From positions 54,322 through 118,321 of the forward strand of contig CAWCAF010000035.1 of the NCBI GenBank assembly GCA_963793385.1: DNA of 64,000 nt, given 5' to 3'. The stretch is from an uncultured Acidimicrobiales bacterium. Its GTDB lineage: Bacteria > Actinomycetota > Acidimicrobiia > Acidimicrobiales > SZUA-35. Positions 1,552 to 54,857 of this stretch are shown here, one piece after another (position 1 is the stretch's first letter; each line of letters starts with the position of its first letter). Under the pieces are notes generated by a model that did not search any database, was not told where the DNA came from, and was given only the letters and a program-made list of their open reading frames with translations. A program made the position numbers and the translations under genes.

Positions 1552-1611
1552 GGGTGCGGTCGAGTCACGCCCGATCCGTGAGCGCAAGCGACGGGCCCGA
1601 AGGAGGGTTTC

Positions 1612-2010: not shown

Positions 2011-2060
2011 TGAGTCGCCGGACGGGCCCAGCGTGGTGCCATGTGCCTGCAACGATCGCA

Positions 2061-2719: not shown

Positions 2720-2791
2720 GCAAGAAAGGTTAGAAGTACTGCGTAGATGCCGACGCAATCAGCAGACTTCGGTGATTGACTGGTAAACCGC

Positions 2792-3810
2792 ATGCCCACA
2801 CAGCACAAACGCCACCTCGTGGTCGACGGCTCCAACATCGCAACGGAGGGTCGGACGACGCCCAGCCTCGCCCAACTGGAGGAGGCGGTTGCCGCTGTCG
2901 CGCAACAGGGATTCGATCCGATCACGGTGATCGTCGATGCGACGTTCCCTCGCAGGATCGATCAGTCGGAACTCGATGAGTTCGAGCAGAGGATCCTCGA
3001 TGGATCGCTCGTGACGCCACCGGCCGGGGTTGTCGGTAGAGGCGATGCGTTCATCCTCCAGGTTGCGGCTCAGGTGAATGCGATCGTCCTCTCCAACGAT
3101 TCGTTCCAGGAATTCCACGGCGAACACGAATGGTTGCTCGACGAGGACGGTCGGCTCCTCGGAGGAAAGCCGGTACCGAACGTCGGTTGGGTCTTCGCCA
3201 GGCGAGGACCGGTGCGCGGCCCCAAGAGCCGACAGTCGATTCGCGAGGCCAAGGACGCCAAGGAACCAGCCGGCAAGAAGCCACCTCAGAAGAAGGCTGC
3301 GGCATCCTCACCGTCAGACACGTCCAAGCGGGAAACGCAAGCGCGGCGGTCGAGACAAGAAGAAGGCGACCCAGACACCGACTGGCGAGCCCACGCTGCG
3401 CAGCTGAGCCCGACTCGGCACGACGGTCCACACCAAGATCCAAGGAATCCGCTCACCTCAACGACGTCGCCGAGTTCCTCACGTTCGTGAGAGAACACTC
3501 GATCGGCGACACCGTCGAAGGTGCGGTCGAGCGATTCTCCAGTCACGGTTGCTACTTACGGGTGGCGACCGCCCAGTGTTATCTGCCAATCAAGGCGATG
3601 GGGGATCCACCGCCGAACAAGGCCAGGGACCGAGTGTCCCGCGGCGACATTGTTCGGGCCAAGGTCGAGTCCCTCGACGCCCAACGACGAGGGATCAACG
3701 TTTCGCTGGTCAGCGTGACCTCTCGGGCAGATCGCAGCGACCAGAAACACAAGCCGCCGACGTCAAAGGACGCGGCGATCAGCAACACGCCCCGTAGGAG
3801 CGAATCAACC
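2792..3810 (+). CDS. NYN/Zc3h12a-like ribonuclease domain plus S1 RNA-binding domain protein (frameshifted linker)
   Basis: The N-terminus ([27 protein letters not shown]) is NYN/PIN-like. After a basic linker that changes frame, an S1-like domain follows ([43 protein letters not shown]). There is no stop before the K/A-rich ORF in the same frame. Confidence 0.55.
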
Positions 3811-4254
3811 ATGGCAACACCCAAGAAGGCTACGAAGAAGCGGACCACCAAGAAAGCACCGGCCAAGAAGGCGCCGGCCAAGAAGGCCGCCAAGAAAGCA
3901 CCGGCCAAGAAAGCTGCACCCAAGAAAGCAGCCAAGAAAGCACCGGCCAAGAAGGCTGCACCCAAGAAAGCCGCCAAGAAAGCACCGGCCAAGAAGGCTG
4001 CACCCAAGAAGGCCGCCAAGAAGCGGACCACCAAGAAAGCACCGGCCAAGAAGGCTGCACCCAAGAAGGCCAGCCAAGAAAGCACCGGCCAAGAAGGCTG
4101 CACCCAAGAAGGCCGCCAAGAAAGCACCGGCCAAGAAGGCTGCACCGAAGAAGGCCGCCAAGAAAGCACCGGCCAAGAAGGCTGCACCCAAGAAGGCCGC
4201 CAAGAAAGCACCGGCCAAGAAGGCCGCACCCAAGAAGGCCGCCAAGAAGCGCTA
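3811..4254 (+). CDS. Lys/Ala-rich histone H1/Hlp-tail-like protein, or a C-terminal tail of the preceding protein; built from 42-nt tandem repeats; one 1-nt indel
   Basis: AGGAG lies 10 nt before the ATG at 3811. The sequence is [20 protein letters not shown] followed by ([14 protein letters not shown])n. An extra A near 4070 shifts the frame; the restored frame ends AAKKR* at 4254. Confidence 0.55.
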
Positions 4255-4270
4255 GCGGTCGCGGACCTTC

Positions 4271-4307
4271 CCGATTGGTCCCCTGTGGCGGCAGGGGCAA
4301 CAATCGG
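4271..4307 (+). terminator. Stem-loop between the K/A-rich gene and ettA
   Basis: The structure reads ccgattg-gt-cccctg-tggcgg-cagggg-caa-caatcgg. Both arm pairs are exact reverse complements. There is no T-tract, which is common in high-G+C actinobacteria. Confidence 0.45.
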
Positions 4308-4325
4308 CCAATACGCTCGTGTGCC

Positions 4326-6015
4326 ATGTCGGCACAGTTCATCTACTCCATGCACAAGGTCGGGAGGTACTACCCCCCGGACCGTCAGGTGCTCGAGAAC
4401 ATCAGCCTCTCGTTCTTCCCCGGCGCGAAGATCGGTGTGCTCGGCTCCAACGGTGCCGGGAAGTCCTCGTTGCTGCGCATCATGGCTGGACTCGACGACG
4501 GTTACGTCGGGGAGGCCCGGCTGACGCCCGGCTTCACGGTGGGCTACCTCGAACAGGAACCGAGACTCGATCCGACCAAGGACGTTCGAGCAATGTGATG
4601 GACGGTGCGGGCGAGACGGTTCAGCTGTTGGCCGACTACGAGTCCTTGATGGAGCGATGGGCCGATCCGGAGGCTGATTACGAAAAGCTCGGTGCCAGCC
4701 AGGCCGATCTCGAGGCCCGGATCGAAGCGGCACAGGGGTGGGATCTCCAGCGGACGATCGAGATCGCGATGGACGCACTCCGACTCCCGCCACCCGCACC
4801 AGTCCGTGGAGCACCTCTCGGGTGGCGAGAAACGCCGAGTGGCCCTGTGCCGACTCCTGCTCAGCCAGCCCGACCTCCTGCTGCTCGACGAGCCCACGAA
4901 CCATCTCGATGCCGAGAGCGTGCATTGGCTCGAGAAGCGACTGGACTCGTATCCCGGGACGGTGGTGGCGATCACCCACGACAGGTACTTCCTCGACAAC
5001 GTCGCTCGATGGATACTCGAACTCGATCAGGGGAAAGGGGATCCCGTTCGAGGGCAACTACTCCTCCTGGTTGGAGCAGAAGCAGGCTCGCCTCGACTCC
5101 GAGCAACGTTCCCAGGCAGCCAAGCAACGAACCCTCGCACGCGAGACTGGAATGGGTTCGACTGGCTCCCAAGGCACGACAGGCCAAGGGGCGGGCTCGC
5201 CTGACGGCCTACGAGACGCTGCGAAAGGAAGCCGAGGCATACGACCCGTCCCAGGAGCGCGTCCAGATCCACATCCCGCCAGGTCCCCGACTCGGCGACC
5301 AGGTCGTCGAGGTCGACGAATCTCGCCAAGGGATTCGGCGACAAGCTCCTCATCGAGAACCTCTCCTTCCAGCTTCCCAAGGCCGGCATCGTCGGTGTGA
5401 TCGGCGGCAACGGCGCCGGAAAGACCACGCTGTTCAGGATGCTGATCGCCGCCGCGACCGGGGACGGCGAACGCCCTGACGCCGGTTCGATCACGATCGG
5501 TTCCACCGTCCGGTTGTCCTACGTCGATCAGAGTCGTGATGTGCTCGACGCCGGACAAGTCGGTCTACGAGGAGATCACCGACGGCAAGGAGGTGATCGA
5601 CCTGGGCGGTCGGGAGGTCAACGGCCGCGCCTATGTGGCCGGTTTCAACTTCCGCGGATCGGACCAGCAGAAGGAGGTTGGCGTTCTCTCCGGCGGTGAG
5701 CGGAACCGAGTCCACCTGGCCAAGGTGCTGAAGGACGGCGGCAACCTGCTGCTCCTGGACGAGCCGACGAATGACCTCGACGTCGACACCCTCCGAGCGC
5801 TCGAGGACGGACTCGAGCGCTTCGCCGGCTGTGCGGTGGTCATCAGTCACGATCGGTGGTTTCTCGATCGGGTCGCCACGCACATCCTCGCGTTCGAAGG
5901 CAACAGCCAGGTCCGCTGGTTCGAGGGCAACTTCAGCGAATACGAGGGATTCCGTGAGGCTGAACTCGGCGACGCAGCCCTCCCCCATCGAATGGAGTAC
6001 AAGACGACGGCGTGA
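4326..6015 (+). CDS. ettA: ABC-F translation factor EttA (six frame changes in this assembly)
   Basis: The N-terminus is [48 protein letters not shown]. Two Walker A motifs, two LSGGE signatures and the C-terminus ([11 protein letters not shown]) are recovered only by hopping frames in the order 0,2,0,1,2,0,1. Confidence 0.9.
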
Positions 6016-6226
6016 CTACGACGCAGCGGCGGGTGAACTTCACCGACCGGTGGAGCACATCGGTGCCCGACATAGCACACTCGAGTTATGGTCCAACGCC
6101 TCACGGCAAACTCGTCGCCGGCACCACTTCGTCCAGCCGGCCATCCGGCGACCGGGCGACCTGGCGTGGGGCGCCTTCAGTGACAGCCCTCCGTGGATCC
6201 TGACCGACAGGAACCCTGAATGGCGA

Positions 6227-7740
6227 ATGAGCGCCGACCGCCGCCGGCAGCTTCAGGCCCAGGATCTGCCGACGCTGTACCGAGCGCCCAGGTTGCCGCC
6301 GCTTCGACGGGCGCTCACCGTACTGCGCGTCATCGGCAGCGCACTTCTGATCTGGGCGATCCGTGAGCGCGGGACACCCAGGTCGAAAGCGGCGATCAGT
6401 CGGCGCATACGAGTGGCGGCCGAGAAACTCGGCCCGACCTACATCAAGCTGGCCCAGATCATCGCCGCCGGTGAGGGTGTGTTTCCGGCCGAACTGGTCA
6501 CCGAATGCAAGAGGTGTCGAGATCAGGTTCCAGCGGTCGACTACCAGCAGATGGTGAGGGTCGTCGAGCGAGATCTTGGACGACCGATGCACGACCTGTT
6601 CTCCTCGTTTTCTGCGACGCCCATGGCCGCTGCTTCGATCGCCCAGGTGCATCGGGCCACACTCCTCGATGGCACTCCGGTCGTCGTGAAGGTTCAGCGA
6701 CCCGGAATCGACGAGCTCGTCCGTCGAGACCTCAAAGTGCTGTCCTGGTTGGCTCCGTTCCTCGTCGGTCGGATACCGGTGTCGGCACTCGCCAATCCCC
6801 CGGCTCTGGTCGAACTGTTTGCCGAGACCATCGTGGAGGAACTCGACTTCCACCTCGAAGGCGACAACATGCTGGACGTCGCGGAGATCATGGTGAAGCT
6901 CAAGCAGGACGGTTTCGTGATTCCCCGTCCTCATCCCGAGTTGGTGAGCACGAGAGTTCTCGTCATGGAGGAGCTGTCCGGCTTCGGTTTCGACGACGTC
7001 GTCGGGATGAAGGGAGCGGGTGTCAACACCCACGATGTGATCCGGACCGGGATGATCGGCTTCCTCGAAGGTGCCTTCCTGCACGGCGTGTTCCACGGCG
7101 ACCTCCACGGCGGAAACCTCCTGGTTCTTCCCGACGGTCGAACCGGCCTGCTCGATTTCGGTATCACCGGCCGGCTCAGCGACACCGAGAAGCAGGCGTT
7201 CATGAAGATGATGATGACCGCCACGATGAACGACGTGCACCGGCCAGGTGAGTGCACTGAGGGATCTCGGCGCGTTGCCACCCGACGCCGACGTCGACGC
7301 GGTCGTCGCCGATCTCGGCCTCGACGGTCCCCCGCTCGACCCGACCAAGATGTCACCCGAGGAGCTGGTCGGCTGAACTGCAGCGAATCATCAAGTCACT
7401 GCTCGGCTACGGGGCCAGAATGCCCAAGCCGTTGATGCTCTACGTGAAGAATCTCATCTTCATCGACGAAGCGATCGCCACGCTCGCACCCGATCTCGAT
7501 CTGTTCGGCGAGGTGACCTACATCGCCACGCACTTCTTCACCGCACACGGACAAACGATCGCCGACGAACTCGGCGTGGCACAGACCGAATGGAAACTCG
7601 ACCTCGACGGGATCAAGGCCGGCTTCGGTGTGGATCCGAGCCAGATGGAACGCCTGAGCCACAACGAACTGCAGGAACGCCGCGCCCTCATCAACAAACG
7701 GCTGGCTAGCCAGTCGCCCCTCAAGCGACTGACCACCTGA
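6227..7740 (+). CDS. ABC1/UbiB-family atypical kinase (two frame changes near the 3' end)
   Basis: Diagnostic segments are KLGPTYIKLAQIIA, AAASIAQVHRATLLDGTPVVVKVQRPGI and HGDLHGGNLLV. The C-terminus continues in ORF 7420..7740. Confidence 0.8.
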
Positions 7741-7759
7741 GGTTCCCGGCCACAGCCGC

Positions 7760-8518
7760 TCAGCCTCGAAGGATTTCGAGACATCTGTCGGCCAGCTCGG
7801 GCCGGCAGATCAACAGATCAGGCAAGTAGGGATCGGGGTTGTTGTAGCGCATCGGCGAACCGTCCAAACGGGAGCAGTGGAGACCGGCCGCGGTGGCGAC
7901 GGCGACAGGCGCACAGTTGTCCCACTCGTATTGGCCCCCGGAGTGCGCATAGATGTCCGCATGACCCCGAACGACCGCCATCGCCTTGGCTCCGGCCGAG
8001 CCCAGCTCGAGGTAGTCCGCCCCGAGGGCGGCGGCCAGCATCTGTGCCGCCGGCGGGCGACGGGTCCGGCTCACGATCACGCGCAGGGTCTCGCTGGGCA
8101 TCGGCGGCACGACCGGCGGCGTATCGGTTCCGAACACCAGATTCTCGGCGGGCAGCGCAACCGCGCCGGCGATGGGACTGCCGTCACTGACCAGGGCGAT
8201 GTGGACCGCCCAGTCGATGCGAGGCGGTTCGGCGTATTCGCGGGTGCCGTCCAGCGGATCGACGATCCAGACCCGGTCGGCATCGAGGCGATCTCGCCGG
8301 TCGGCGCCCTCTTCGGAGAGAAGGGCGTCGCCGGGCCGTTCCCGGGCGATCGCGTCGGCGATGAAATCATGCGCAGCGGCGTCGCCGGCATCCTTCATGA
8401 CGAAGTGATGGGCGCCGTCGTCGACCATTCGTGAACGCAGCTCGGTCAGGATCCGTCCGGTGTCGGCAGCCAGCCGTGCGGCAAGGGAATGGTCATCCGG
8501 GGTTGCGTTCACCTGCAC
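7760..8518 (-). CDS. cysQ: 3'(2'),5'-bisphosphate nucleotidase / inositol-monophosphatase family
   Basis: Intact 252-aa ORF with the IMPase motifs LLSEEG, WIVDPLDGTREY and YEWDNCA. Confidence 0.75.
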   Translation of the reverse strand: MQVNATPDDHSLAARLAADTGRILTELRSRMVDDGAHHFVMKDAGDAAAHDFIADAIARERPGDALLSEEGADRRDRLDADRVWIVDPLDGTREYAEPPRIDWAVHIALVSDGSPIAGAVALPAENLVFGTDTPPVVPPMPSETLRVIVSRTRRPPAAQMLAAALGADYLELGSAGAKAMAVVRGHADIYAHSGGQYEWDNCAPVAVATAAGLHCSRLDGSPMRYNNPDPYLPDLLICRPELADRCLEILRG

Positions 8519-8930: not shown

Positions 8931-9590
8931 GTGCGATTGGTGGTTGCAGTGTGCACCGTGACCTACGACGGTCGACTCACCTCGCGGCTGGAGCGGGCCA
9001 GAAGGCTCCTGATGGTCAAGGCTGACGGCTGCGTCGCAGTACACGCCGACGGTGGTGCCTACAAGCCGCTGAACTGGATGAACGCCCCCAACACCATCAG
9101 CATGACCGATGAGGGTTGGCGGGTCGCCAACGACAAGGGCGAGGCGCTCGTGATAGAGCTCCACGCCGTCGAATCCGACATCACCATCGAACTCGGCGTG
9201 GACCCGGGGCTCCAGAAGGACGGGGTCGAGAACCATCTCCAGGAACTCCTCGCCGAACAACCGGAGGAGATCGAACACGGCCTGCAATTGATTCGCCGCG
9301 AACACCGGACCGAGATCGGTCCGGTCGATCTGCTCTGCCGGGACTCCGACGGGATGACCGTCGCGGTCGAGGTGAAACGTCGAGGTGAAATCGATGGTGT
9401 GGAACAGCTGTCCCGCTATCTGGAGTTCCTGAACGCCCAACCCGACCTGGCACCGGTGAGGGGTGTGTTCGCAGCTCAGTCGATCAAGCCGCAAGCAAAA
9501 GTGCTGGCCGGCTACCGAGACATCGGATGTGTCGAAGTCGACTACGACCAGCTCCGAGGGCTCGAAAAGCCACAACAAACACTCTTCTGA
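8931..9590 (+). CDS. nucS: Endonuclease NucS / EndoMS (mismatch-specific)
   Basis: Intact 219 aa and collinear with mycobacterial NucS ([51 protein letters not shown]). Confidence 0.9.
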
Positions 9591-9608
9591 CGTCCACCGT
9601 CACGATCC
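9381..9608 (+). repeat. Left copy of the perfect 228-bp direct repeat (last ~210 nt of nucS plus 18 nt downstream)
   Basis: Base-for-base identical to 18495..18722 by manual alignment. The sequences diverge immediately after ...cacgatcc. Confidence 0.9.
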
Positions 9609-9619
9609 CAGTATCCCGA

Positions 9620-9861
9620 GGCGCTGGCAGGCCACAACGCCGAGCTGACCCGATCGAACGCCTCGGTGGGAACGCACCGACGTCGTTCAGATCTTCCCCA
9701 ACACCGAAAGTGTGATCCGCCTCGTCGGCGCACTCCTGATCGAGATCAACGTCGAGAAGATCTCCTCCGACCGTCGCTACATCGCCGCCGGGAGCCCCGA
9801 ACCTCTCGTCGACCACAAAGGAGACCAGCTAACCTCACTACCCGCAGCACCAAGAACCTGA
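9620..9861 (+). mobile_element. IS256-family transposase 3' remnant (frameshifted; no N-terminal part)
   Basis: DPIERL.. / RTDVVQIFPNTESVIRLVGALLIEIN..RRYI matches the conserved IS256 transposase C-terminus (ERLN.E.KRRT.VVGIFPN..S..RLVGAVL.E..DEW...RRY). Confidence 0.6.
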
Positions 9862-10010
9862 GCAACAGAATCACACGCCACTCCTACACCCGCACAGCAC
9901 TCCATCGTCTACTTGATCCCCAGCCTCACCCCATTCAGTTCTCTAAGCTCATTTCTCCGACGTCACTGTTTCTCATTCTCCACACATAGTCTCCGCTGAA
10001 AGATCCCGAG

Positions 10011-10958
10011 ATGTTGATCCCTGAGCCATCCAATTCACAACCTCTGTCCGTCGCCCTTGTCGGCGGAGAAGCCGCCGGAACACAGACGCTGAAGCGTCTG
10101 GTCTCCCTCGAAGTGAAGGTTGCGTTCGTCTGCGCGTCCGCCTCTGATTCATCGTCGCTGGTCGAGGTTGCCAGATCACACAACGTGCCTGTGCTGGATT
10201 CTTCCGCTCTTCGGTCGGGCTTGGCGACCCAAAGCATCGCTGACCACGACGTTGATGTGCTCCTGAACATCCACTCGCTCCAGCTACTGCCGGAAGACCT
10301 TCTCGTTGGCCCCAAGATCGGCAGCTTCAATCTGCATCCTGGCCCTCTTCCTTCCTACGGCGGTCTCGGTGCACCGAGTTGGGCGATCTACAATGGCGAA
10401 TCGCGCCACGCAGTGACGCTGCACTGGATGACTGCAAAGCTCGATGCCGGCGATATCGCGTACGAACGCTGGTTCGAGTTAGACGACAAAGCGACCGGAT
10501 TTTCAGTGAGCACTCAATGCGCCAAGCTCGGACTCGAACTGGTCAGCGAGCTCATTCGACAAGCGGCAATCGACCCTGAGTCAATTCCGAGAACGCCCCA
10601 GGGTCTCGGCGAGCGCCGCCTGTACCGCCGCGATCAGATCCCTGGCGATGGGAAGATCGACTGGCGGCAATCGGCCCGGTTGATCAATCGACTGGTGAGA
10701 GCGTCGTCCTATCGACCCTTCCCGTCCCCCTGGGGTGATCCCCGGACCTTGCTCGGCGACCGTCCGATAGACCTTGTGGCAACCACGTTGACCGACGAAC
10801 ACGACAGCGGCCAGCGGGCCGGCACCGTCATCGCTTTGGCCGACGGCAACCTTGCCGTGGTGACCGGCGAAGGTGTCCTCCGAATTGACCGGGTGATTCT
10901 GGATGGTCGAGTGGTGGCCGCATCTGAGGTGCTTTCGTCTGGCGACATCCTCAGTTAG
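10011..10958 (+). CDS. Fmt/ArnA-N-like formyltransferase
   Basis: Intact 315 aa. The formyltransferase core (VDVLLNIHSLQLLPEDLL..FNLHPGPLPSYGGLGAPSWAI..LDAGDI) is followed by an Fmt-like C-terminal beta-barrel region. Confidence 0.75.
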   Translation: MLIPEPSNSQPLSVALVGGEAAGTQTLKRLVSLEVKVAFVCASASDSSSLVEVARSHNVPVLDSSALRSGLATQSIADHDVDVLLNIHSLQLLPEDLLVGPKIGSFNLHPGPLPSYGGLGAPSWAIYNGESRHAVTLHWMTAKLDAGDIAYERWFELDDKATGFSVSTQCAKLGLELVSELIRQAAIDPESIPRTPQGLGERRLYRRDQIPGDGKIDWRQSARLINRLVRASSYRPFPSPWGDPRTLLGDRPIDLVATTLTDEHDSGQRAGTVIALADGNLAVVTGEGVLRIDRVILDGRVVAASEVLSSGDILS

Positions 10959-11028
10959 TTCGCACGATCCAGTCGCGCCGTTCACTCGTCGCCAAACACG
11001 CCCATCCATGCTTCGCCGTCGAATCGAC

Positions 11029-12357
11029 TCAAAAGGACGTGCTACCTAGAAGAACCCGAAGCAGTTCGGGATCCGGAGAGTGCACAAGCGGGTGTGTGGA
11101 ATGTCGCCGAAGCAGAATGCCTCGACGGCCCACAACCTTGCTCAAATGGTGCTCCCAACGCCCGTCTACAAGCGCTGCGCCGTTGTCATACGCATCGTGG
11201 AGAAGATGCGAGAAGACGTCCTCGAGATAGGGATCCTTGCCACCAATCTGCAGGACCCGCGAGATGCTTCCACGTCCGAGCAGGTAGAGGTACCACCCGC
11301 AGATCACACCCTCGTCGTCTCGAAAGAGGGCGCCCCTCAGCTCTCCCTTCCCCACCCGGCCCAGCGCGTCGAACTCCCACTTGAGGAAGTCCTCGTCATA
11401 TGCCGGCTTCAGGACCGTGTCTCCCGAAAGCGTCGAGATCGCTTCAACAAGCGTACGTGGCACAAGCGTCTCGGCAACAAGTGTCGAGCGTGCAGGCAAC
11501 AACCAGCGCGACCCTTTGCTCAACACTCTGTCGGCCAGTATCGCCAGCCCTTTCGACCGTTCGCCCAAGGCACGTTTTTCGAGAGAATAGCTATGGGCGA
11601 AGGTCATCGGGCGCATGACGACGGTCCATCGCCGGGCCCGCTCGTCCACCCGTTGACCTCCCAACCCGGTCCACATCTCACGACCCAGATCGGTGGCGCC
11701 ATCGGTGATACTGAAATCCTGAGGACCAGCGAGGTAGCGCTCCATCAGAAAGGCTCCGATACCGAACTTCCGAGATTCAGGGTCGACAATCAGTGGACCC
11801 GAACAGCCCATGCGGACTTGTGATCCCTTGTACTCGAACAACCGCGTATTCGAACCGATGAAGCCGATCAGCCTTCCGGTCTGGTCACTTGCGATCAACG
11901 CTGGAATCCCGGGATCGGCCTGAGGATGATCAAAGAAGAGTTCGGAAAGGAAATCCGCCAAAACATCGGCGGAACCTGACCTCTTGGTCACCTTCACCAG
12001 CAGCGCCGCCACCTCAGGAAGGTCGTCACGCTTCATAGGCTTTATCTCACCACCACCGGGCAGCGGGAACGCGGCCAGCGGTTCAGTGGGCGAGTCCGGC
12101 TCGACCGACTCGTCACGCACCGACACGAGACGAGCCAAACTGACGGCCGTGCGCAGGTCATCGAACTCCAGCGAATGTAATGGGATCTCGACGCCGAACG
12201 CCGACTCCAGTTCTGCCATCACCTCGATCAATCCGAGCGAATCAAGGGTTCCCGAGTCGAGTAGATCGACATCTGCCGAGGAGATGTCCACGCCCAGCTT
12301 GGCCTCGAGGATACCGATGACCCGGCCGACGGTCTCGGAGTTCGCGGGATCAGACAT
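11029..12357 (-). CDS. Carrier protein (phosphopantetheine attachment) fused to a GNAT-like acyltransferase domain
   Basis: Intact 442 aa. The N-terminal ACP motif is LLDSGTLDSLGLIEVMAELE. The C-terminal ~330 aa have GNAT-like segments (RLIGFIGS..; GIGAFLMERYL). The start overlaps the stop of the adenylation gene by 8 nt. Confidence 0.65.
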   Translation of the reverse strand: MSDPANSETVGRVIGILEAKLGVDISSADVDLLDSGTLDSLGLIEVMAELESAFGVEIPLHSLEFDDLRTAVSLARLVSVRDESVEPDSPTEPLAAFPLPGGGEIKPMKRDDLPEVAALLVKVTKRSGSADVLADFLSELFFDHPQADPGIPALIASDQTGRLIGFIGSNTRLFEYKGSQVRMGCSGPLIVDPESRKFGIGAFLMERYLAGPQDFSITDGATDLGREMWTGLGGQRVDERARRWTVVMRPMTFAHSYSLEKRALGERSKGLAILADRVLSKGSRWLLPARSTLVAETLVPRTLVEAISTLSGDTVLKPAYDEDFLKWEFDALGRVGKGELRGALFRDDEGVICGWYLYLLGRGSISRVLQIGGKDPYLEDVFSHLLHDAYDNGAALVDGRWEHHLSKVVGRRGILLRRHSTHPLVHSPDPELLRVLLGSTSF

Positions 12358-13927
12358 CGGCTTCCTCGAAAGACTCGCGAATGGCCCGTCGGTCTATCTT
12401 GCCGTTCGCGTTCTTGGGGAGCGTCTCGTAGGACCGCCAACGGACCGGAATCATGTATCGCGGGAGCGTCGACGCCAGCTGTTTGCGAAGTGTCAGGACT
12501 GCTTCGTCGAACTCAAGAGCGACGCCGGTATAGGCACACGCCACTACCTTGCCAGCGTCGGAGTCGTCGACACCGACGACTGCACACTCCTTCACCATCT
12601 CGATCGCATCCATGGCGGCCTCGATTTCGCCCAGCTCGATCCGGTAGCCCCTGCTCTTGATTTGTGAGTCTGACCGACCGAGCAGATAGAGCTGACCGTC
12701 AGACCCGACGCGGGCGAGGTCACCGGTGCGGTACAACCGATTCCCCCCGCTGTCGAGAAAGAAGGCGGCGTTGGTCTTCTCTGTGTCCCGCCAGTAGCCG
12801 GCGGACAGGCCAACACCCCCGATGACGAGATTGCCAACGTCGCCGTCGGGCGTCTGAGCGTTGTCGTCGTCGAGGATCTGCAGGGTCTCACCGGGACAGG
12901 CGACGCCGATTGGAATGGGACTCGTCGGGCTGGCGGGCGGTTCGTCAAGTGTGTAGAAGCTTGATGCGATGGTGGCCTCGGTCGGGCCGTACAGATTGGT
13001 GAATCGGACTCGCGGCAGCCGCTCCATCAGGTATTGAAGAGTCGGCGTCGGCATCATCTCACCGCACCAGAGAAGGCGGGTGAGAGATGGAAACTCGGCT
13101 CGGTCCATGGCACCGGACCGCATCATGAGCGTGAGGATGGAGGGCACGCTGAACCATTGGTTGAGTTCGCTATTCCGTATGAAGTCGACCAGCTTGCCCG
13201 GCAGCAGGTTGAGAGTGGATGGCACAAGATGCAGTTCCGCACCAGCGCCGATCGTTGAGTAAATGTCGAACGTGGAGAGATCGAAATGGAGCGGCGGATG
13301 ACCTGAGACGCGCTCTCCTGGGCAGGTACCGAAATAGTTGGTCGCCCAGTCAACGAAGTGACAGACGTTTTCGTGACTGATGACCACACCTTTCGGATCG
13401 CCTGTTGACCCGGACGTGTAGAGCAGGTGCGCAGGATCGGAAGGGGCGGCGGGGCTTGTCACCTGATCCGGATCGCTTCGAACGACATCGTCGTGCTCGA
13501 ACTCGAGGGGTAGGCCGACGACACCGGGTTCAAGCGCCCCGATACGAAGCGACCCATCGACACCTGGTTGGTTGAGTACGTCAGCCAACAACCCGGCACC
13601 GGCCGAAGTGGTCAACACGAAGGCCGGATCGGAGGATGCGAAGATCCGGGCGAGCCTTGGCGCTGGAGCGGAGATGTCGACGGGAACGTAAACGGCCCCG
13701 GCCTTGAGTACCGCGAGAAACGCCGTGATCGCGCGAGGGCTCTTCGGTGAGAAGACCACTACTCGATCATTGGAGCGGCACCCAGCTGCAACCAACGTTC
13801 GAGCCAGGGAATTACTCTGCTGGTCGAGCTCCTCGTAGCTCAGCACAACATCGCCCGCCACGATCGCCCGAGCCGAAGGCTGCTGCTTGGCCGTATGAAG
13901 GAACCGGTCCTGGATGAGGCCTGTCAT
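12350..13927 (-). CDS. Stand-alone amino-acid adenylation enzyme (ANL superfamily, DltA-like size)
   Basis: Intact 525 aa with A-domain core motifs (LLYTSGSTGDPKGV, NLYGPTEAT, YRTGDLAR, GRSDSQIKSRGYRIELGEIE, LPKNANGKIDR). An ATGA overlap links it to the upstream LLM gene. Confidence 0.85.
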   Translation of the reverse strand: MTGLIQDRFLHTAKQQPSARAIVAGDVVLSYEELDQQSNSLARTLVAAGCRSNDRVVVFSPKSPRAITAFLAVLKAGAVYVPVDISAPAPRLARIFASSDPAFVLTTSAGAGLLADVLNQPGVDGSLRIGALEPGVVGLPLEFEHDDVVRSDPDQVTSPAAPSDPAHLLYTSGSTGDPKGVVISHENVCHFVDWATNYFGTCPGERVSGHPPLHFDLSTFDIYSTIGAGAELHLVPSTLNLLPGKLVDFIRNSELNQWFSVPSILTLMMRSGAMDRAEFPSLTRLLWCGEMMPTPTLQYLMERLPRVRFTNLYGPTEATIASSFYTLDEPPASPTSPIPIGVACPGETLQILDDDNAQTPDGDVGNLVIGGVGLSAGYWRDTEKTNAAFFLDSGGNRLYRTGDLARVGSDGQLYLLGRSDSQIKSRGYRIELGEIEAAMDAIEMVKECAVVGVDDSDAGKVVACAYTGVALEFDEAVLTLRKQLASTLPRYMIPVRWRSYETLPKNANGKIDRRAIRESFEEADV

Positions 13928-14997
13928 CGGGACTCCGAGGCAAATTCCGTCGAGGCGTCGGCGGCCATGTTTATGGCCCTGGTAGCGTGCTCAATGTCAT
14001 TCATGTCGACGGGAATATCCAGAATGAAAGTTCCGTAGCCGGCGGTGATATATCGGCCGATTTCGGGCACTACCTCGTCGAAGCTTCCGACGAGATACGG
14101 ACAAAAGGTGTTGTAGTTACGGAAGGGGTGGAGCCAATAGACACCCGCATCACCAGCTTCACTCAGTTGCTGGTGCCACTGGGAGTCGGATGTTTTCATG
14201 GCCATGGCGTGGGCCATTTGGCCCTTGCGATCCTCAGGGAATCGACCGAAAGCGATCTCCCACGCGTCTTCGGAACGATCACGTGCAATGATCCCGATTC
14301 TGATCCCGCAAGGGACCGCAGCGCCGTTCATATCGTCCTCGACACCTGGCGGACCGGGATATCGGATGGCCGTCGCGCCGATGCCCTCGGCGGCGTGCAT
14401 GCCAGCGTCTGACGAGCCTGAAATCAGGAACGTTGTCCGAATGCCGTCGGGCATCGGAGGCTTCAACGACAGTCCTTCGAGCTGAAAGAAGTGACCGTCC
14501 TGTGTGATGGATTCGCCGTCGAGCAGCCGCCTCATAATCGTTGCATACTCCTCGGCCCGGGCGTAGCGGTCGTCGTGCGGCGTGGTGTCGCCCAGCGCTT
14601 TCAGATCGTTTCGAAAACCTCCAGCCACGATGTTCACATCAGTGGCCCGACCGTGCATCAACGCCAAGCTGGCGATCTTCTTGGCCGCTGCGTAGGGGTG
14701 CATGTAGGCCGACTGAACGGCGACGAGGGGCCGTAGTTTCGAAGTGAAGCCCATCACCGAGTGAGCGATCAACCATGGATCGATGAGACTGTTATCGGTA
14801 TATATGAGGGTCCCGACGCACCCGGCTGCCTCACTCCAAGTCGCCGCCTCATGAACCATCGTGAGGTAGTCGGAACCTTCACTAGGTGCGTCCGACGACT
14901 TCGGACACGTCGAATAGATCTGTATTGTCAAGCCCGTTCCCACGCTTTCTGTAGAGGCCACCCTGTCGATTTTAGCATGGACCCCATCAACTACCAA
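13924..14997 (-). CDS. Luciferase-like (LLM-class) flavin-dependent monooxygenase
   Basis: Intact ORF with LLM-like segments (IYSTCP.., LRPLVAVQSAYMHPY, NIVAGGF). The true start is probably the internal TTG at 14931 (MTIQIYSTCP), by comparison with the paralogous fragment at 18256. Confidence 0.7.
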   Translation of the reverse strand: MVVDGVHAKIDRVASTESVGTGLTIQIYSTCPKSSDAPSEGSDYLTMVHEAATWSEAAGCVGTLIYTDNSLIDPWLIAHSVMGFTSKLRPLVAVQSAYMHPYAAAKKIASLALMHGRATDVNIVAGGFRNDLKALGDTTPHDDRYARAEEYATIMRRLLDGESITQDGHFFQLEGLSLKPPMPDGIRTTFLISGSSDAGMHAAEGIGATAIRYPGPPGVEDDMNGAAVPCGIRIGIIARDRSEDAWEIAFGRFPEDRKGQMAHAMAMKTSDSQWHQQLSEAGDAGVYWLHPFRNYNTFCPYLVGSFDEVVPEIGRYITAGYGTFILDIPVDMNDIEHATRAINMAADASTEFASESR

Positions 14998-15588
14998 GGT
15001 GCAGGGTCATCAGATAATGGGTTGCACGTAGGGCATCTTACCACCCGTTGAACAGGCGCGAATGGTTACAAAAGTCTCTCCAACCAAGTCGACCTTATGA
15101 CCGTGATTAAGGTCTGCGGTTGGAAGCACACGGACGTCTCGCTTCGTGGAGCCGGCGTTCGCACTCACAGCTCTTCGCCTGGCATACCTGACACTCAGCG
15201 ACGCCTGCCGACTGGTCATTTCGACCGGGTCACGTGCACACGGCCGCGCTCTCGATCAAAGCGGCAGTTCTCATCGGCTTGTGCCGAGTCGGCGCTCGAA
15301 ACACAGCTGCTGATGTCTTCCGACAGCATGCTCCGACGCAACCGCAGCTGCATTCGTCTTGATTGGGTGATCGTGTGGACCACGGGAACCTCTCCCCGGA
15401 TCAGAGGCCGGTGTCGCTTCGGGTCTTTACGCAAGCGTCCAGCACACTGGTCGGCCAAGACGCCCGGTGTGGCCGCTTTGTCGACAGCCATGCGTCGACA
15501 GAGTTGGCTGCAAGGGTCCACACCGACCCCTCCCAGTGCGCTCCGATGACGTTCCGAAGACCTCCGGAACGAGCGTGATGCGGGCCCG

Positions 15589-16605
15589 CTAGAAGTCTCT
15601 ACAAACAAGAAGTTGGTCATATTTGGCAGCCTTCACATTTGATTCAATCTCACGCCAACTCTCCGAAGGACTCTTTCCATCGGACCAAGCCAATAGCATT
15701 GCCGGTACATTTGCGCCTGCTACATGAGTGAACGGATACCCACCACCGAACCGTGGATTCATCTCCAGTACGTAGACACTCTCGTGAGTGACGAAGACAT
15801 CACAGTCGAGGTTGCCCACATGCGCAAGCTTCCGCCCAATCGTCTCGCCAAGCCTTTGAAGTCGATCATCTTCAACCGTCATCGCCTGACTTGTCTCTCC
15901 TGAACGCATGCCAATCTTACGTTTCGCAAAGGTCGACACGTAGCGACCGTTCAGATCATTGATGATGTCAAGACCATATTCTTGCCCGGGCAATTTCTCC
16001 TGTATGAGGACCGATCGTTGGTGATCAGTAGCGCTCACCTCTGAGAGGATTGTTCGTTTGAGCTTCTTCCTGAGGAGTCGATAGGCCAACTCCAGCTCCT
16101 CGCAGTCCTGTGGGAACTCGATGCCAATCGAGGCAGTCCCCCATCGGGGTTTGACCACCAACGGAAAAGCAACTTCCCCTTGGGACAACGCCCTACGCGC
16201 CTCTACCACACTCAGATACGTCTTGGGGAAGGGAAGTCTCAATTCCTTCAGAAACTCAACCGTCGCCAACTTGTCAAAGCTGGCCATAACCACATCTGGT
16301 GACGACACGACAGGTATCGTGCCAATTTCGAGGAATCGATCGCGCTCCCGGGCCAATGGCAGCAACTCCAGGTCGTTCAGCGGGATCAGCAAGCGAACCT
16401 GGTGCTCCTGACAAATGGCTATTAGGCGATCAATGTAGCTCGTATCGCCGATGGCAGGAACGATGAAGGCCCTGTCTGCGACCTGTAAAGCCGGCGCATC
16501 AGCGGAAACATCGGCGGCGTATACTTCTCCCTTTTCTGGCAATGCAGACCGAAAGTATTCCACAAGGTAATTGCGGCGACCTGCACAGGTTAGGAGTACG
16601 TTCAT
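15589..16605 (-). CDS. ATP-grasp ligase
   Basis: Intact 338 aa. The sequence MNVLLTCAGRRNYLVEYF.. then ..FPLVVKPRWGTASIGI..LIQEKLPGQEYGLDI..VYVLEMNPRFGGGYP is typical of the ATP-grasp fold. G+C is markedly low. Confidence 0.75.
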   Translation of the reverse strand: MNVLLTCAGRRNYLVEYFRSALPEKGEVYAADVSADAPALQVADRAFIVPAIGDTSYIDRLIAICQEHQVRLLIPLNDLELLPLARERDRFLEIGTIPVVSSPDVVMASFDKLATVEFLKELRLPFPKTYLSVVEARRALSQGEVAFPLVVKPRWGTASIGIEFPQDCEELELAYRLLRKKLKRTILSEVSATDHQRSVLIQEKLPGQEYGLDIINDLNGRYVSTFAKRKIGMRSGETSQAMTVEDDRLQRLGETIGRKLAHVGNLDCDVFVTHESVYVLEMNPRFGGGYPFTHVAGANVPAMLLAWSDGKSPSESWREIESNVKAAKYDQLLVCRDF

Positions 16606-16674
16606 AATGAGAGAAAACTGCTCTTAGCTTCTTGCAACTGGCTTCCCGATGGCTCTCATGCGGTAGAGGCGGCG

Positions 16675-17917
16675 CTAAATAAGATACGTCGCGAACACGT
16701 CCGCAAGTTCTTCCTGTCGCTTGACGACTTCGAATTCGTCTAGTGTTGATCTATAGGCGAGTATAGGTGGGCACGGATGAATGAACGGCGGCTTCATGAC
16801 CGTGTTATAGGCACCAACATTATCAAAGATCAAGTAGTCATTCAATGTTAGAGGACCGGAGTAGCCGCTGTGAAGACAGTCATGCTCCATGCAGGTAGTG
16901 CCGACAATATCAATGAGGTCACCGGATCCGGTCGCTCCCGATCCGGCGTGTGACGAAACCACCCTCATTGGGAGGTTCCGTTTGTGTAGCGTTGGCTTCA
17001 CGTTGTGAATGCTGCCCGAGGAAAGAGCTATTGTTCGCGAACGTACGGTCTTTATATCAACTATTTTGGCTACGAATTTCATCGTATTTGCTGTAATAGC
17101 TGTACCAGGTTCGAGGATCAGCTCAGGTGCCAATTGATCAGGAAACTGGTCACGAAACAAATGAGCAATGGTTGTCGCATAGTCTTGAAAAGTCGGTATT
17201 GGTTGAGTGAATTGCTCTCGCAACGCAAATGGCACGTCGCTGAAAAATCCTCCACCCAGATTGATGAATTGAGGTAGCGTATCCGCAAAGTGATCAGAGG
17301 CCAGAGCTAACATCTTGTTCGCCCTCAAAGCATACGAATCGAGGCTCTTGTGCGAGGTTGAGAAATGGCAATGCAACCCACCGACGGTGCAGTTGTCCAG
17401 ACGACGGAGTCGGTCAAGCGCATCCTGAAAGTCGTCTCCATCGACGTCAAATCCAAATCGAGAAATATCATCGGAGGCAAGCTCAAAGTTGCAACGGACG
17501 CCAACTGTCATCTGATGCTCAGGTGATCGTTTGGCTATTGCCTCGACAATCGCTACTTCAGAGCATGAGTCCAGGTTGACTATCGAGCCAGCCAGGAGCG
17601 CCTTTTCAATATCTGGCTCGCGCTTGTAGGGACCATTGAAGATGATTCGGGATGGTATGACCCCAATACGCAGGGCCAGATCATATTCCATGACGGAGAC
17701 AACTTCAGCATAGCCACCCATAGCATTGACAGATTTGCAGAGTCTTGGCGTATAGTTCGTCTTATACGAGTACCGCGATGTTGCTCTTGGGGTATATTGA
17801 TTTGAAGGCCCCTAAGAACTCTTGATAGTTGGACTCAAACAGGTCGAGGTCGAGTAGATAGAATGCATCCCCATACGACTCTTCCAGCCCATGAAGTGAA
17901 TGCCAGGAAATACTCAT
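16675..17917 (-). CDS. PLP-dependent decarboxylase, Orn/DAP/Arg decarboxylase family (fold type III); one frameshift near 17775
   Basis: The 348-aa ORF has HCHFSTSHKS, NLGGGF and EPGTAITA. The missing N-terminus (MSISWHSL..DAFYLLDL ... YSYKTNYTPRL) lies upstream in two frames. Confidence 0.7.
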
Positions 17918-18025
17918 GCCAAGGCTTCTTTCGTGGTCGGCGATCTCATCGTGCTCGGTGGTAGTGCGCAGCTCTGAGGTCGTCCCGCAAATCCGCTGAC
18001 ACGATCTTCAAGTCTGGTGGACCGC

Positions 18026-18256
18026 CTATTCATCAGAGCCGGACTGTGCCACGAGCGGTCGCAGACCTGACCCAAAGCCCATCACCCACTCAGGACCCAG
18101 CAGCGGATCGGTAAGGCTGTTGCCGGCATCGGCGAGGGTGACGCAGCCGACTGTGTCGCGCCGGATCGCCGGATCGCGCACCGCCGAGAGGTAGCCGCTG
18201 CCTCCGATCACTGCGTCCGAGGGCGTCGGGCACGTCGAACAGATCTGCACCTTCAC
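18026..18256 (-). pseudogene. N-terminal fragment of a second LLM-class monooxygenase
   Basis: The 76-aa ORF MKVQICSTCP..GYLSAV..GCV..NSLTDP..VMGF.S.LRPLVA aligns with residues ~24-100 of the LLM at 13924..14997, then stops. Its G+C is higher than that of the neighbouring genes. Confidence 0.6.
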
Positions 18257-18365
18257 ATCGATACACCCTCTCTGGGGACCTTCGGGGACAACACTCTCAC
18301 CGGTTCCAAATCGTCGCTTCTGGCAACCTCAGCTCGATTCGCCACTTTACGTGGTCGTCCCAGAC

Positions 18366-18397
18366 TCACAATAGGTACTTGTCACAATAGGCACTTG
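18366..18397 (+). repeat. 16-bp tandem duplication (tcacaataggtacttg / tcacaataggcacttg)
   Basis: Read directly from the sequence; there is one mismatch. It lies ~100 nt inside the right island boundary. Confidence 0.8.
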
Positions 18398-18467
18398 GCA
18401 CCAGGACGTCGAGATCAGCTGTCGGCCTTCGAAGGCCTTCGTCCGCCTCGAACGGGCAACCGACGCA

Positions 18468-18704
18468 ATGACCACCGCGTTCGAGGTGAAACGGCGAGGT
18501 GAAATCGATGGTGTGGAACAGCTGTCCCGCTATCTGGAGTTCCTGAACGCCCAACCCGACCTGGCACCGGTGAGGGGTGTGTTCGCAGCTCAGTCGATCA
18601 AGCCGCAAGCAAAAGTGCTGGCCGGCTACCGAGACATCGGATGTGTCGAAGTCGACTACGACCAGCTCCGAGGGCTCGAAAAGCCACAACAAACACTCTT
18701 CTGA
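18468..18704 (+). pseudogene. Duplicated 3' part of nucS (78 codons)
   Basis: [27 protein letters not shown]...QQTLF is identical to the NucS C-terminus from RRGE onward. Confidence 0.9.
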
Positions 18705-18722
18705 CGTCCACCGTCACGATCC
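18495..18722 (+). repeat. Right copy of the perfect 228-bp direct repeat
   Basis: Identical to 9381..9608. Confidence 0.9.
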
Positions 18723-18767: not shown

Positions 18768-20721
18768 ATGACGCGCCAGAGGTTGACGATTTCGCTGACC
18801 ATCGTCGTCGGTTTCGTCGCATTGGTTTGCCTGGCATGGGCCATCGATTCGGCACTGGGCGCCAACACGGTCGCTCGAAACGTGAGCGTCCACGGCGTGG
18901 ACCTCAGCGGCATGACCTCCGAAGAGGTTCGCGGGGTGGCGACGGATTTCACCACCACCTTGGCCCAGGACCCGGTCACGATCTCGGTCGAGAACACGAC
19001 CGTGGCTACCGACCTCGTTCGGCTCGGGGCCCGGGTCGATCACAAGGCGCTGGTCGGGGCGGCGTTCGAGGCCCGCACGGACGGATCGTTGCTCGGTGGT
19101 CCTTTCCGCTGGCTCACGTCGTTTCGCACCCCCGTCGAGCTCGACCTCCCCTATCTGGTCGAGGCCGACACGGTCCAGGCGGCGGTCGAGAGCTTCATCT
19201 CCCCACAGCTCGACGGCCCGCAGCAACCGTCCGTGGCGATGAGGCAGACCCGGTTCGTGACCGAACCCGGCGTCGAAGGCGTCGTCGTCGATCCGGCTCA
19301 GCTCCTCGATCGGATCGTGGGTGCAACCGGCACGCCGGGACCGCATCGATTCAGCCTCACCCCATACCCGCAACGACCTGAGCTATCACTGGACTCGGTG
19401 GGACGGGTCGCCGTCGAGTTGAACAAAGCGACCGGCGATCCTCTAGAGGTCACTGTCCTCGACCAGAAGACCCTTCTCGAGCCTGCCGATTTGCGGGACC
19501 TCATCGAGGTCGACAACACCGATGACGGCGTGTTCTGGCACGTCGACCAGAACCGAGCCGTGGAGCTACTGGGCGATCGCTTCGAACGCCTCGGCGACGA
19601 GTCGCAGCAGGCCCGCTTCATCGTCGTCCAGGATCGGCCCGAAATCGTCCCCGCCGACGAGACGGTGATCTGTTGCGACGACAAGACGGCAGCTCTGCTA
19701 CGAGCGGCGCTGCTCTCCCGTCCGGCCGCCCCGACGACCGACGACGAGAACGCCGACACCGAGGCCCCGGAGGCTATTCGTTCAGTCGAACTGATCCCGA
19801 TCGTGACCGACGGCGACAAGGGGGTTGCCGAACTGGAGGAGCTGGGGATCGTCGAGTTGGTGTCGACGTTCACCACGAGTCACCCGTGCTGTGCGAACCG
19901 GGTCGTGAACATTCAACTGTTCGCCGACACGATCCGTGGTGCGATCATCGAGCCGGGAGAGACGTTGAGTCTCAACGGCTACGTGGGCCAACGCACGAAG
20001 GAGAAGGGATATCTCCAGGCGGGAGCGATCTCGCGGGGGAATCTCGAGCCACAATACGGTGGCGGGGTCTCCCAGGTCGCCACCACTACGTTCAATACGG
20101 CGTTCTTCGCCGGTCTCGACATCGTCGAGTACCAGGCCCACTCGCTCTACTTCAGCCGATACCCGGAGGGTCGGGAGGCCACGATCTCCTACCCCCGCCC
20201 CGATCTCAAGATCGCCAACAACACCCCGTACGGAGTGTTGCTGTGGACCGAATACACCCCGACGTCGATCACGGTGTCCATGTACTCGACCAAGAACGTC
20301 GAGGTCGAGGACCTCGGAGTCTCGAGACGGGCACAGAACAAATGCCGGCGGGTCACGACGACCCGACAGCGGACATTCTCCGACGGAACCGTCACGACCG
20401 ACACCTTCTTCGCGGTGTATCGACCTGGCGAGGGGCTGGACTGCAACGGCGATCCGACCGTGCCACCCGAAACCGACGGCGAGGACCCCGTCCCCGCTGA
20501 GCCACCCGAGCAACAGCCGCCGACCACCGAACCGCCCGCCGCCGAACCCCCCACCCCCGAACCCCGACCCGAACGAACCCGAACCCCCCGCTCCCGAACC
20601 GACGCCGGAGGAACCAGCACCGCAACCACCGGCCGATCCCCAGCCCCAGGATCCAGCCGATGGGGCATCAGACCCTGCTCTCGAGGTACAACCGGGTGAT
20701 GGCTCCGACGCTGCGGGGTGA
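18768..20721 (+). CDS. VanW-domain protein with an N-terminal membrane anchor and a Pro-rich C-terminal tail (one frame change in the tail)
   Basis: The TM segment is LTISLTIVVGFVALVCLAWAI. The VanW core is YGGGVSQVATTTFNTAFFAGLDIVEYQAHSLYFSRYPEGREATI. The PEPxP-type tail continues in ORF 20059..20721 after C-rich runs near 20550. Confidence 0.75.
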
Positions 20722-22139: not shown

Positions 22140-22743
22140 CGTCCTTTTGTGCTGTCTCCGTCACCGAGGATCCCGAGCTCGATCTTCGTTCGAGATTCAT
22201 CGCCGGCGATCGCGACGCGCTCAAGACCCTGTACGACCTGCACGGCGACGCCATCTTCACGTTGCCAAGAAAGCGCTCGGTCCCGAACACGCCCAGGACC
22301 TCACCCAGGAGGTCTTTCTCTCCGCATGGCGGGCACGTGGATCGTTCGATGCCGTCGAAGGGAAGCCTCGGTGGATGGCTGATGGGCATCACCAAGAACC
22401 GTCTCATCGACTCCTACCGCCGAACCGGCCGCCGCGTCGACGAGGCCGAACTGAGCGAACCGGTCGAGCAGCGATCGGCCAACGAGGACCACCTTCGCTT
22501 CGGCGTTCTCGCCGACCGGTTGGTGCTCACCGCAGCACTCAACTGCGCTTCCCGACCGGCAGCGCCAGGTACTGACGCTGGCGTTCTGGGGAGACCGGAC
22601 CCAGCAGCAGATCGCCGACGAGTTCGGACTCGCCCTCGGCACGGTGAAGAGCGACATGCGTAGAGGTCTGCTGCGACTTCGAGCAGAGCTCGAGAGAGAA
22701 GATATCAATGGTGTCTCGACGACCGGCAGGGAGGCGTCGATGA
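22140..22743 (+). CDS. ECF sigma factor, SigK-like (frameshifted; both ends approximate)
   Basis: Region 2 (DLTQEVFLSAWR; GWLMGITKNRLIDSYRR) and region 4 (QRQVLTLAFWGDRTQQQIADEFGLALGTVKSDMRRGL) are found in three frames. Confidence 0.7.
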
Positions 22744-54840: not shown

Positions 54841-54857
54841 TCCCGTCCCCCAACCCA

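Follow-up and report, generated by a model that had tools for sequence, protein, structure and literature searches.

A mosaic biosynthetic island between two copies of the nucS 3' end in an uncultured Acidimicrobiales bacterium

The DNA analysed here, which we call the window, is a stretch of 64,000 nt from an uncultured Acidimicrobiales bacterium (lineage SZUA-35; GenBank assembly GCA_963793385.1, contig CAWCAF010000035.1, positions 54,322 to 118,321). In it the mismatch endonuclease gene nucS and the VanW-family gene that is its native downstream neighbour are separated by an island whose unique DNA amounts to about 8.8 kb (the repeats being 9114 bp apart), bracketed by two direct copies of the 3' end of nucS: one within the intact gene, the other a partial copy standing in front of VanW. 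Between the copies lie six biosynthetic genes, as a preliminary description of this locus, made from the sequence without database searches, had reported, and each has a biosynthetic Pfam domain. The features, in window coordinates, are as follows.

8931 to 9590, plus strand: nucS (EndoMS/NucS mismatch endonuclease), the target gene; intact, 219 amino acids, Pfam NucS_N and NucS_C.
9333 to 9608, plus strand: left repeat copy, resembling a left attachment site (attL-like); 9381-9608 is the perfect block, and 9333-9380 is only 75% matched in the right copy.
9609 to 9861 (about 250 bp), plus strand: degenerate remnant of the C-terminal part of a Mutator/IS256-family transposase gene, split among three frames in six-frame translation, with no spacer to the repeat.
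10011 to 10958, plus strand: formyltransferase, like ArnA and sugar N-formyltransferases; Pfam Formyl_trans_N and Formyl_trans_C.
11029 to 12357, minus strand: DltC-like carrier protein fused to a domain of about 350 amino acids with weak GNAT similarity; Pfam PP-binding, matches to D-alanyl carrier proteins.
12350 to 13927, minus strand: stand-alone amino-acid adenylation enzyme (like adenylation domains of non-ribosomal peptide synthetases, or DltA); Pfam AMP-binding and AMP-binding_C, matches to solved structures.
13924 to 14997, minus strand: luciferase-like flavin monooxygenase (LLM); Pfam Bac_luciferase.
15589 to 16605, minus strand: ATP-grasp ligase (carbamoyl-phosphate-synthase-like or PylC-like), in the low-G+C module; Pfam PylC-like_N and ATP-grasp_3.
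16675 to 17917, minus strand: pyridoxal-phosphate-dependent decarboxylase of the ornithine/diaminopimelate type, in the low-G+C module; Pfam Orn_Arg_deC_N and Orn_DAP_Arg_deC for 16675-17721.
18029 to 18256, minus strand: N-terminal fragment (76 amino acids) from a paralogous second LLM gene, 52% identical by tblastn to the LLM of the island across 71 amino acids (E = 3e-16), with host-like G+C.
18366 to 18397, plus strand: two tandem 16-nt units, TCACAATAGG(T/C)ACTTG, which lie some 100-130 bp to the left of the perfect block and occur nowhere else in the 64 kb (0.05 expected by chance).
18447 to 18722, plus strand: right repeat copy, resembling a right attachment site (attR-like), a partial nucS (nucS'); 18447-18494 is degenerate and 18495-18722 equals 9381-9608.
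18768 to 20699, plus strand: VanW-family gene; Pfam VanW, start taken from a 643-amino-acid database entry (P0126) that is 100% identical.

A repeat finder returned a 270-nt direct repeat (9339-9608 and 18453-18722, 97% identity, 9114 bp apart), this nucS-tail pair being the sole dispersed long direct repeat in the 64 kb, and pairwise alignment resolved within it a block of 228 bp that is perfectly repeated (9381-9608 and 18495-18722). The block consists of the final 210 nt of nucS and the 18 nt downstream, just as first described, and a 45-mer from its end occurs at two sites only in the window and at none in 100 shuffles. To the left of the block, in register, the 48 bp at 9333-9380 match those at 18447-18494 at 36 positions; the 12 differences are taken as real because they are substitutions and not insertions or deletions. 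The contrast between 12 mismatches in the 48-bp edge and none in the 228-bp block is sharp (Fisher p = 2e-10), and further left than about 9333/18447 identity is only 18-30%. On its other side the right copy (18495-18722) runs on into native intergenic DNA, and residues 135-219 of a relative's NucS match it at 18447-18701 (tblastn). Its stop codon is followed after 63 bp by the VanW start at 18768 (a longer open reading frame of this gene starts at 18735), and the insertion point lies 18 bp past the nucS stop, within this 63-bp spacer. Just left of the partial copy are the tandem pair, with the 16-mer TCACAATAGGYACTTG, and, as a separate observation, a perfect 14-bp palindrome, GGCCTTCGAAGGCC, at 18424-18437; judging from sequence and position, the 16-mers could be arm-type sites for a recombinase or could serve the LLM fragment as an operator, and the palindrome may likewise be a putative arm site or operator.

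The DNA between the copies is compositionally foreign. Its G+C content is 57.6% versus 65.5% outside, and its 1-kb windows lie 1.6 to 7.9 standard deviations (SD) under the mean of the 1-kb windows outside (65.5%, SD 2.0); all 15 of the lowest-G+C 1-kb windows of the 64 kb fall in the island. Tetranucleotide distance is raised as well, with z = 5-8 across 15-18 kb and a maximum of z = 8.2 at 16-18 kb. The description of the region as a low-G+C island thus stands for the island as a whole, and the G+C values given for single 60-nt lines are reproduced (0.35-0.50 at 16981-17160 and 0.75 at 8041), but the island is not uniformly low. About 5.5 kb, comprising the formyltransferase, carrier-fusion, adenylation, and LLM genes, is only slightly below the host, with a G+C content at third codon positions (GC3) of 0.68-0.72 versus 0.75-0.80 in most host genes, and strong deviation is confined to the ATP-grasp gene (GC3 0.57) and the decarboxylase gene (0.51). 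The 76-codon LLM fragment at the right end has a GC3 of 0.76.

The island is a mosaic, made up of a transposase tail, a cassette for a carrier protein, an adenylation enzyme, a monooxygenase, and a formyltransferase, a lower-G+C pair encoding the ATP-grasp ligase and the decarboxylase, and the second-monooxygenase fragment. For the formyltransferase, the top matches among solved structures are ArnA and a GDP-perosamine formyltransferase, while its NCBIfam matches fall under their cut-offs; the adenylation enzyme scores 369 bits against TIGR01733 (cut-off 317) and the ATP-grasp ligase 443 bits against NF009404 (cut-off 316). The carrier-fusion protein is a rare one: a search of 5.8 billion proteins gave 5 homologues at E <= 1e-5, and GNAT families appear at E of about 0.01 in it and in two homologues. 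Its partnership with the adenylation enzyme is found elsewhere: on one contig (L081) a 75% identical adenylation gene lies beside a 54% identical carrier-fusion gene, and a cassette for an LLM, an adenylation enzyme, a carrier protein, an X-domain, and a formyltransferase recurs on unrelated Joint Genome Institute (JGI) metagenome contigs (L082-L084). A homologue of the ATP-grasp ligase (40%) lies within an O-antigen-type sugar cluster on an E. coli plasmid. Because of these similarities of the cassette and the ATP-grasp ligase, the cargo is most likely a carrier-protein-dependent pathway of aminoacyl, formyl, and ATP-grasp decoration, predicted to act on a cell-surface glycan or a related small molecule. 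A search for a donor of the low-G+C module gave best matches that are only 45-48% identical, and among plasmids no relatives of the island DNA were found beyond generic adenylation-domain motifs.

Relatives show what the locus looks like without the island. A NucS scan of species-representative genomes returned Acidimicrobiales/Acidimicrobiia assemblies only, and the NucS of the window is 83-93% identical to those of Acidimicrobiales. The empty site envisaged in the preliminary description, nucS followed directly by VanW, is present in the closest relatives in which it was readable: in the best match of that scan (L001, NucS 83% identical), where the order is inositol monophosphatase, nucS, VanW, and the next conserved gene, with a nucS-VanW gap of 86 bp; in five contigs with 84% identical NucS (L086-L090), where VanW begins 59 bp after nucS; and in several more distant relatives. 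We scanned 80 related loci for island genes and for the duplicated nucS tail, and in none of the 80 did an island-gene homologue stand next to nucS or a second nucS-tail copy occur. Because relatives have nucS and VanW adjacent, with neither island genes nor a duplicated tail, the insertion is specific to this lineage; it lies 18 bp beyond the stop codon of nucS and left both nucS and VanW intact. The possibility that the nucS-VanW spacer is a general hotspot was considered and rejected, as wider gaps hold MaoC- and SDR-type genes of native composition and not mobile DNA, and no relative has its nucS tail duplicated.

The closest relative found, a JGI contig of 1523 bp (L085; 3300045962, Ga0484979_0309502), encodes a 93% identical NucS and shares 90.3% nucleotide identity over 1.5 kb. 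It stops 14 nt past the nucS stop, at the equivalent of window position 9604, which is 4 nt short of the junction, and this end may be an assembly-graph branch, such as would result if another population had an insertion or polymorphism there. A 28-mer shared with this contig had no match in a collection of metagenome contigs, which did not return even L085 itself, and neither the repeat-end 45-mer nor a 38-mer spanning the tandem 16-mers matched any viral contig.

Two further observations concern the surroundings of nucS. In a Ca. Aldehydirespiratoraceae contig (L016, CBDHCN010000002.1), four long open reading frames with tyrosine-recombinase box II motifs (HxLRH...) occupy about 516-7990, upstream of nucS at 10001, and no inositol monophosphatase homologue was detected at that locus; the cluster looks like a multi-recombinase mobile element near nucS, on its 5' side. 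In the relatives with 84% identical NucS, a Rieske/VanA_C oxygenase gene (5957-6967 in L086) sits between the ABC-F and ABC1 genes, and no tblastn match to it was found anywhere in the window (the corresponding position is about 6010-6150), a second difference in gene content near nucS.

The repeated nucS sequence itself holds information about the event. The 228-bp block belongs, by its similarity, to the host's own lineage, being 91.4% identical to L085, whereas the 5' part of nucS is 87.8% identical, and the 18 nt past the stop codon are also conserved in L085. In the right copy, the 48-bp edge changes LCRD, which includes the nuclease Asp, to LERA, and A[VI]E to AFE; neither change occurs among 120 NucS homologues, in which the original residues are invariant. 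The idea that the edge derives from a functional foreign nucS allele was rejected on account of these altered residues, and in alignment the edge is no closer to L085, L001, or L086 than to the window's own nucS. With 12 of 48 versus 0 of 228 positions mismatched and invariant residues destroyed, the partial copy reads as a mosaic of a degenerate piece, either old or element-borne, and a host-identical piece. Since a simple reciprocal crossover keeps the differences between its partners, the mosaic would have pre-existed in the incoming DNA or arisen by later conversion, or else the join was homologous on one side only. The suggestion that perfect identity marks a recent event is for this reason not safe: the adjoining 48 bp differ at 12 positions, and the degenerate left edge of the partial copy means that the identity of the block does not date the insertion.

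The insertion preserved the C-terminal tail of NucS, the clamp-dependent mismatch endonuclease of Actinobacteria, and the motif at the C-terminus with which this family binds the sliding clamp matters for function (PMC6159521). The partial copy contains a 78-codon, ATG-initiated open reading frame (18468-18704) that retains the E-x-K of the nuclease motif and the clamp-binding tail and has no catalytic Asp. A more speculative rider is that this frame might be expressed and its product compete with NucS, modulating mismatch repair.

Frameshifts are frequent around the island and bear on how its damaged genes are to be read. The decarboxylase gene is split by a +1 frameshift near 17765-17770, with its N-terminus in the other frame (17762-17917). 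In the flanks, a series of L086 proteins align to the window in several frames (ABC-F, ABC1 (twice), a 417-amino-acid protein, a sigma-70 factor, an SDR, a HAD hydrolase, and an RNase_Zc3h12a-domain protein), and conserved genes at 2100-26000 carry about one frameshift per 2 kb, for example at about 5554-5558, 7236, 7348-7370, about 21190, about 22300-22550, and about 25457. The simplest explanation is that these are indel errors in a long-read consensus and not real pseudogenes. Pseudogenes were accordingly rejected as evidence of the island's age, as conserved flanking genes are frameshifted at a similar rate, and the decarboxylase frameshift may be such a consensus error for the same reason. 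A long-read consensus also means that reads probably covered the large-scale structure from end to end, making a chimera less likely.

We consider it very probable that the insertion at the 3' end of nucS is real and was acquired horizontally, the repeats being the footprint of recombination; a target gene reconstituted, a leftover partial copy, and compositionally foreign DNA between them all bear out this part of the preliminary description. The island is a horizontally acquired mosaic that is no longer self-mobile. As to how it arrived, we tentatively favour a reading that we hold at somewhat less than probable, in which a degenerate integrative island came in through one reciprocal crossover within the 3' end of nucS, with an integrase that was since lost or acted in trans. 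The element would have existed in a circular form carrying a nucS-like segment, and a single reciprocal crossover between that segment and the last ~230-276 bp of the chromosomal nucS would have duplicated the shared sequence, so that a complete nucS stands at the left end, a nucS' lacking its 5' part at the right end, and VanW retains its native upstream DNA. The catalyst would most likely have been a site-specific integrase of the tyrosine type, since lost, probably through the deletion that brought the transposase stub up to the left repeat, or else supplied in trans from elsewhere in the genome. In favour of this reading are the perfect 228-bp repeats with a partly similar 48-bp extension on the element side only. 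This geometry, with an identity block that runs from within a gene to just past its end, suggests a resemblance to the attachment site of an integrating element (attP), as do the gradual tapering of similarity on the element arm and the unique tandem 16-mers about 100-130 bp from the identity boundary. The scars at both ends, where the repeat is fused to a transposase tail and a second LLM gene is cut short, would fit a later loss of a mobility module. Also counted in its favour are the insertion point within a spacer that is unbroken in L001 and L086-L090, the lack of island genes and second tails in the 80 loci, the deviant composition, and the end of the L085 contig 4 nt short of the junction.

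A good deal weighs against an integrase-driven origin, beginning with the absence of an integrase. Pfam searches, including of six-frame pieces, found no integrase, excisionase, replication, or transfer gene in the island, whose unannotated stretches gave only the sub-threshold transposase match at E <= 1, and motif searches together with tblastn using four Acidimicrobiales tyrosine recombinases found no tyrosine or serine recombinase in the 64 kb, extending to the whole window what had been noted for the island. The window has no tRNA gene, an Rfam scan gave no family of note, scans of the junctions for Rfam families, tRNAs, promoters, and terminators gave nothing usable. The left repeat abuts the transposase fragment, leaving no room for a P' arm. 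Identity between attachment sites usually spans 15-110 bp, and 228 perfect bp is much longer, a length expected for RecA. The block is as similar to L085 as is the rest of nucS and so is of host lineage, which means that an element-borne copy had to be host-identical or was later homogenised. The tandem 16-mers could be a mere operator of the adjacent LLM fragment. No nucS-targeting element was found among the 80 relatives, and a limited literature search found no paper that names nucS as an integration target. Finally, the end of the L085 contig could be a chance break in a low-coverage assembly, although the chance of this is about 1% if ends fall at random in a 1.5-kb contig. A stronger version of the favoured reading, in which the nucS 3' end (stop +18) would be a genuine, recurrently used attachment site in this Acidimicrobiales lineage and small islands lacking an integrase would be moved by a recombinase encoded elsewhere, is to our minds improbable; it would fit the break of the L085 contig within 4 nt of the same position.

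The main rival is Campbell-type integration by RecA, in which a circle carrying a nucS fragment of about 276 bp would have inserted through one crossover with no site-specific recombinase, and the island could afterwards be removed if the repeats recombined in the opposite sense. We regard this as unlikely, though deserving of serious weight: the repeat is long and perfect, and its 228 bp are ample for RecA, the repeated block is host-lineage sequence, neither island nor window holds a recombinase, and the lack of a duplicated tail in the 80 loci, with native-composition genes in the wider gaps, fits a one-off event rather than a dedicated chromosomal attachment site (attB). The sharp switch from 25% mismatch over 48 bp to none over 228 bp, however, demands of this explanation a donor that was already mosaic or a later conversion, the unique tandem 16-mers beside the site are left unexplained, and a non-replicating 9-kb circle without transfer genes and yet with a fragment of a host gene needs an explanation of its own. 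Both of the repeat copies would be the recipient's own if linear foreign DNA had been inserted duplicatively, with a degenerate nucS' end recombining homologously near 18495 and the dead-transposase end attached by illegitimate joining 18 bp past the nucS stop, either at a replication fork or on a sister chromosome, through homology-facilitated illegitimate recombination or template switching. This would explain the identical host-lineage copies with no extra assumptions, the abrupt divergence at one point and on the island side only, and a left junction that cuts a transposase gene and has no attachment-site features. It is nevertheless improbable, as it requires two chromosome copies or a fork and relies on a homologous anchor left of 18495 that is short and only 75% identical; moreover, homology-facilitated illegitimate recombination in published cases usually gives deletions or replacements and not duplications.

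Explanations of other kinds fare worse. An assembly artefact, whether a circular or foreign molecule sharing the 228 bp that was threaded into the chromosome path or a chimeric contig, deserves a thought because the contig is metagenome-assembled, and, unless reads span the repeat, the assembly graph of an integrated element is the same as that of a free circle together with an empty site. The frequent flanking frameshifts, though, suggest a long-read consensus, and long reads normally span 228 bp and probably 9 kb; an island without replication genes could not persist as a free plasmid; and the degenerate 48-bp extension of the right copy implies that the element really contains nucS-derived DNA, so that we rate an artefact as highly improbable. 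Capture by an insertion sequence, one of the mechanisms raised in the preliminary description, would have a composite transposon or an IS256-family element move the island, and its one attraction is the Mutator/IS256-family transposase tail lying directly against the left repeat. The tail is indeed there at 9609-9861, with weak support (Pfam Transposase_mut, E = 4.6e-4, 19.6 bits under a cut-off of 21 bits, profile positions 348-373 of 379), but it is a frame-broken 3' end of about 250 bp with no second copy in the 64-kb window and no terminal inverted repeats around the island. The IS256 family makes target duplications of 8-9 bp, against 228-276 bp here, and this mechanism, largely refuted by the anatomy, has hardly any chance of being correct.

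The locus can be compared with several known systems. SGI1 at trmE, ICESt1 and ICESt3 at fda, and the staphylococcal cassette chromosome (SCC) elements at rlmH each enter a housekeeping gene at its 3' end and restore that gene. The island resembles them in its position at the very 3' end of a protein-coding gene that is conserved, in leaving the target intact with a partial copy at the far end, in the direct repeats around cargo of foreign composition, and in the empty site of relatives; it differs in having no integrase or recombinase, in a perfect repeat of 228 bp as against roughly 15-30 bp, and in its size of only 9 kb, without genes for transfer or mobilisation. In anatomy it matches integrative islands that restore a gene's 3' end, but it lacks the recombinase by which such islands are defined. 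Actinomycete integrative and conjugative elements (AICEs) such as pSAM2 and SLP1 target tRNA genes, carry int, xis, rep, and FtsK-like tra genes, and have attachment-site identities of up to ~110 bp; the actinobacterial host, long identity, and integration at a gene's 3' end are shared with them, whereas the island has no int, xis, rep, or FtsK-like tra domains and the window no tRNA gene. Like Campbell insertion-duplications by suicide plasmids or episomes, the locus shows a complete gene, an insert, and a truncated copy, with a repeat as long as the shared fragment, but it has no replicon or vector-like backbone, and the degenerate left edge of the truncated copy is not predicted by a simple recent crossover with host-identical DNA. 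The closest documented behaviour, by analogy, is that of the microcin H47 island of E. coli, a biosynthetic island of 13 kb that has extensive direct repeats, encodes no recombinase of its own and is mobilised in trans, and for which excision and integration, independent of homologous recombination, were shown experimentally between repeats that are imperfect throughout (PMC3191183). That island is a precedent for the trans mobilisation of an island without an integrase: ours is similarly small (9 kb versus 13 kb), biosynthetic, flanked by long direct repeats, and devoid of a recombinase gene, while its repeat differs in being perfect over 228 bp with one degenerate edge.

Elsewhere in the window three repetitive features were seen. 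A dense direct-repeat array at 3764-4293 (spacings of 12, 15, 27, and 42-43 nt, 16 overlapping 178-nt copies, strong A-over-T skew) stands just downstream of a stretch, reaching to about 3816, that aligns to a relative's RNase_Zc3h12a (NYN)-domain protein. An 80-nt direct repeat, 84% identical and with its copies 2.6 kb apart (52223-52302 and 54854-54933), brackets a short segment, and a run of 14 C at 51253-51266 may be an assembly artefact or a phase-variable tract.

As a trace of past gene acquisition the island is fairly ordinary, and its significance is limited by the lack of a mobility gene, by an event that appears unique among the relatives examined, and by the fact that sequence alone cannot settle the mechanism of mobilisation. 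It also carries a caution, as perfect repeats by themselves do not mean a recent event; here the mosaic partial copy shows that homogenisation or a complex origin is involved. If the favoured reading is true, nucS, the gene for the key enzyme of non-canonical mismatch repair in Actinobacteria, would join the protein-coding genes whose 3' ends receive genomic islands, and the locus would offer a clean, datable case of cell-surface-type biosynthetic genes entering the genome of an uncultured Acidimicrobiales bacterium while leaving their neighbours undisturbed.

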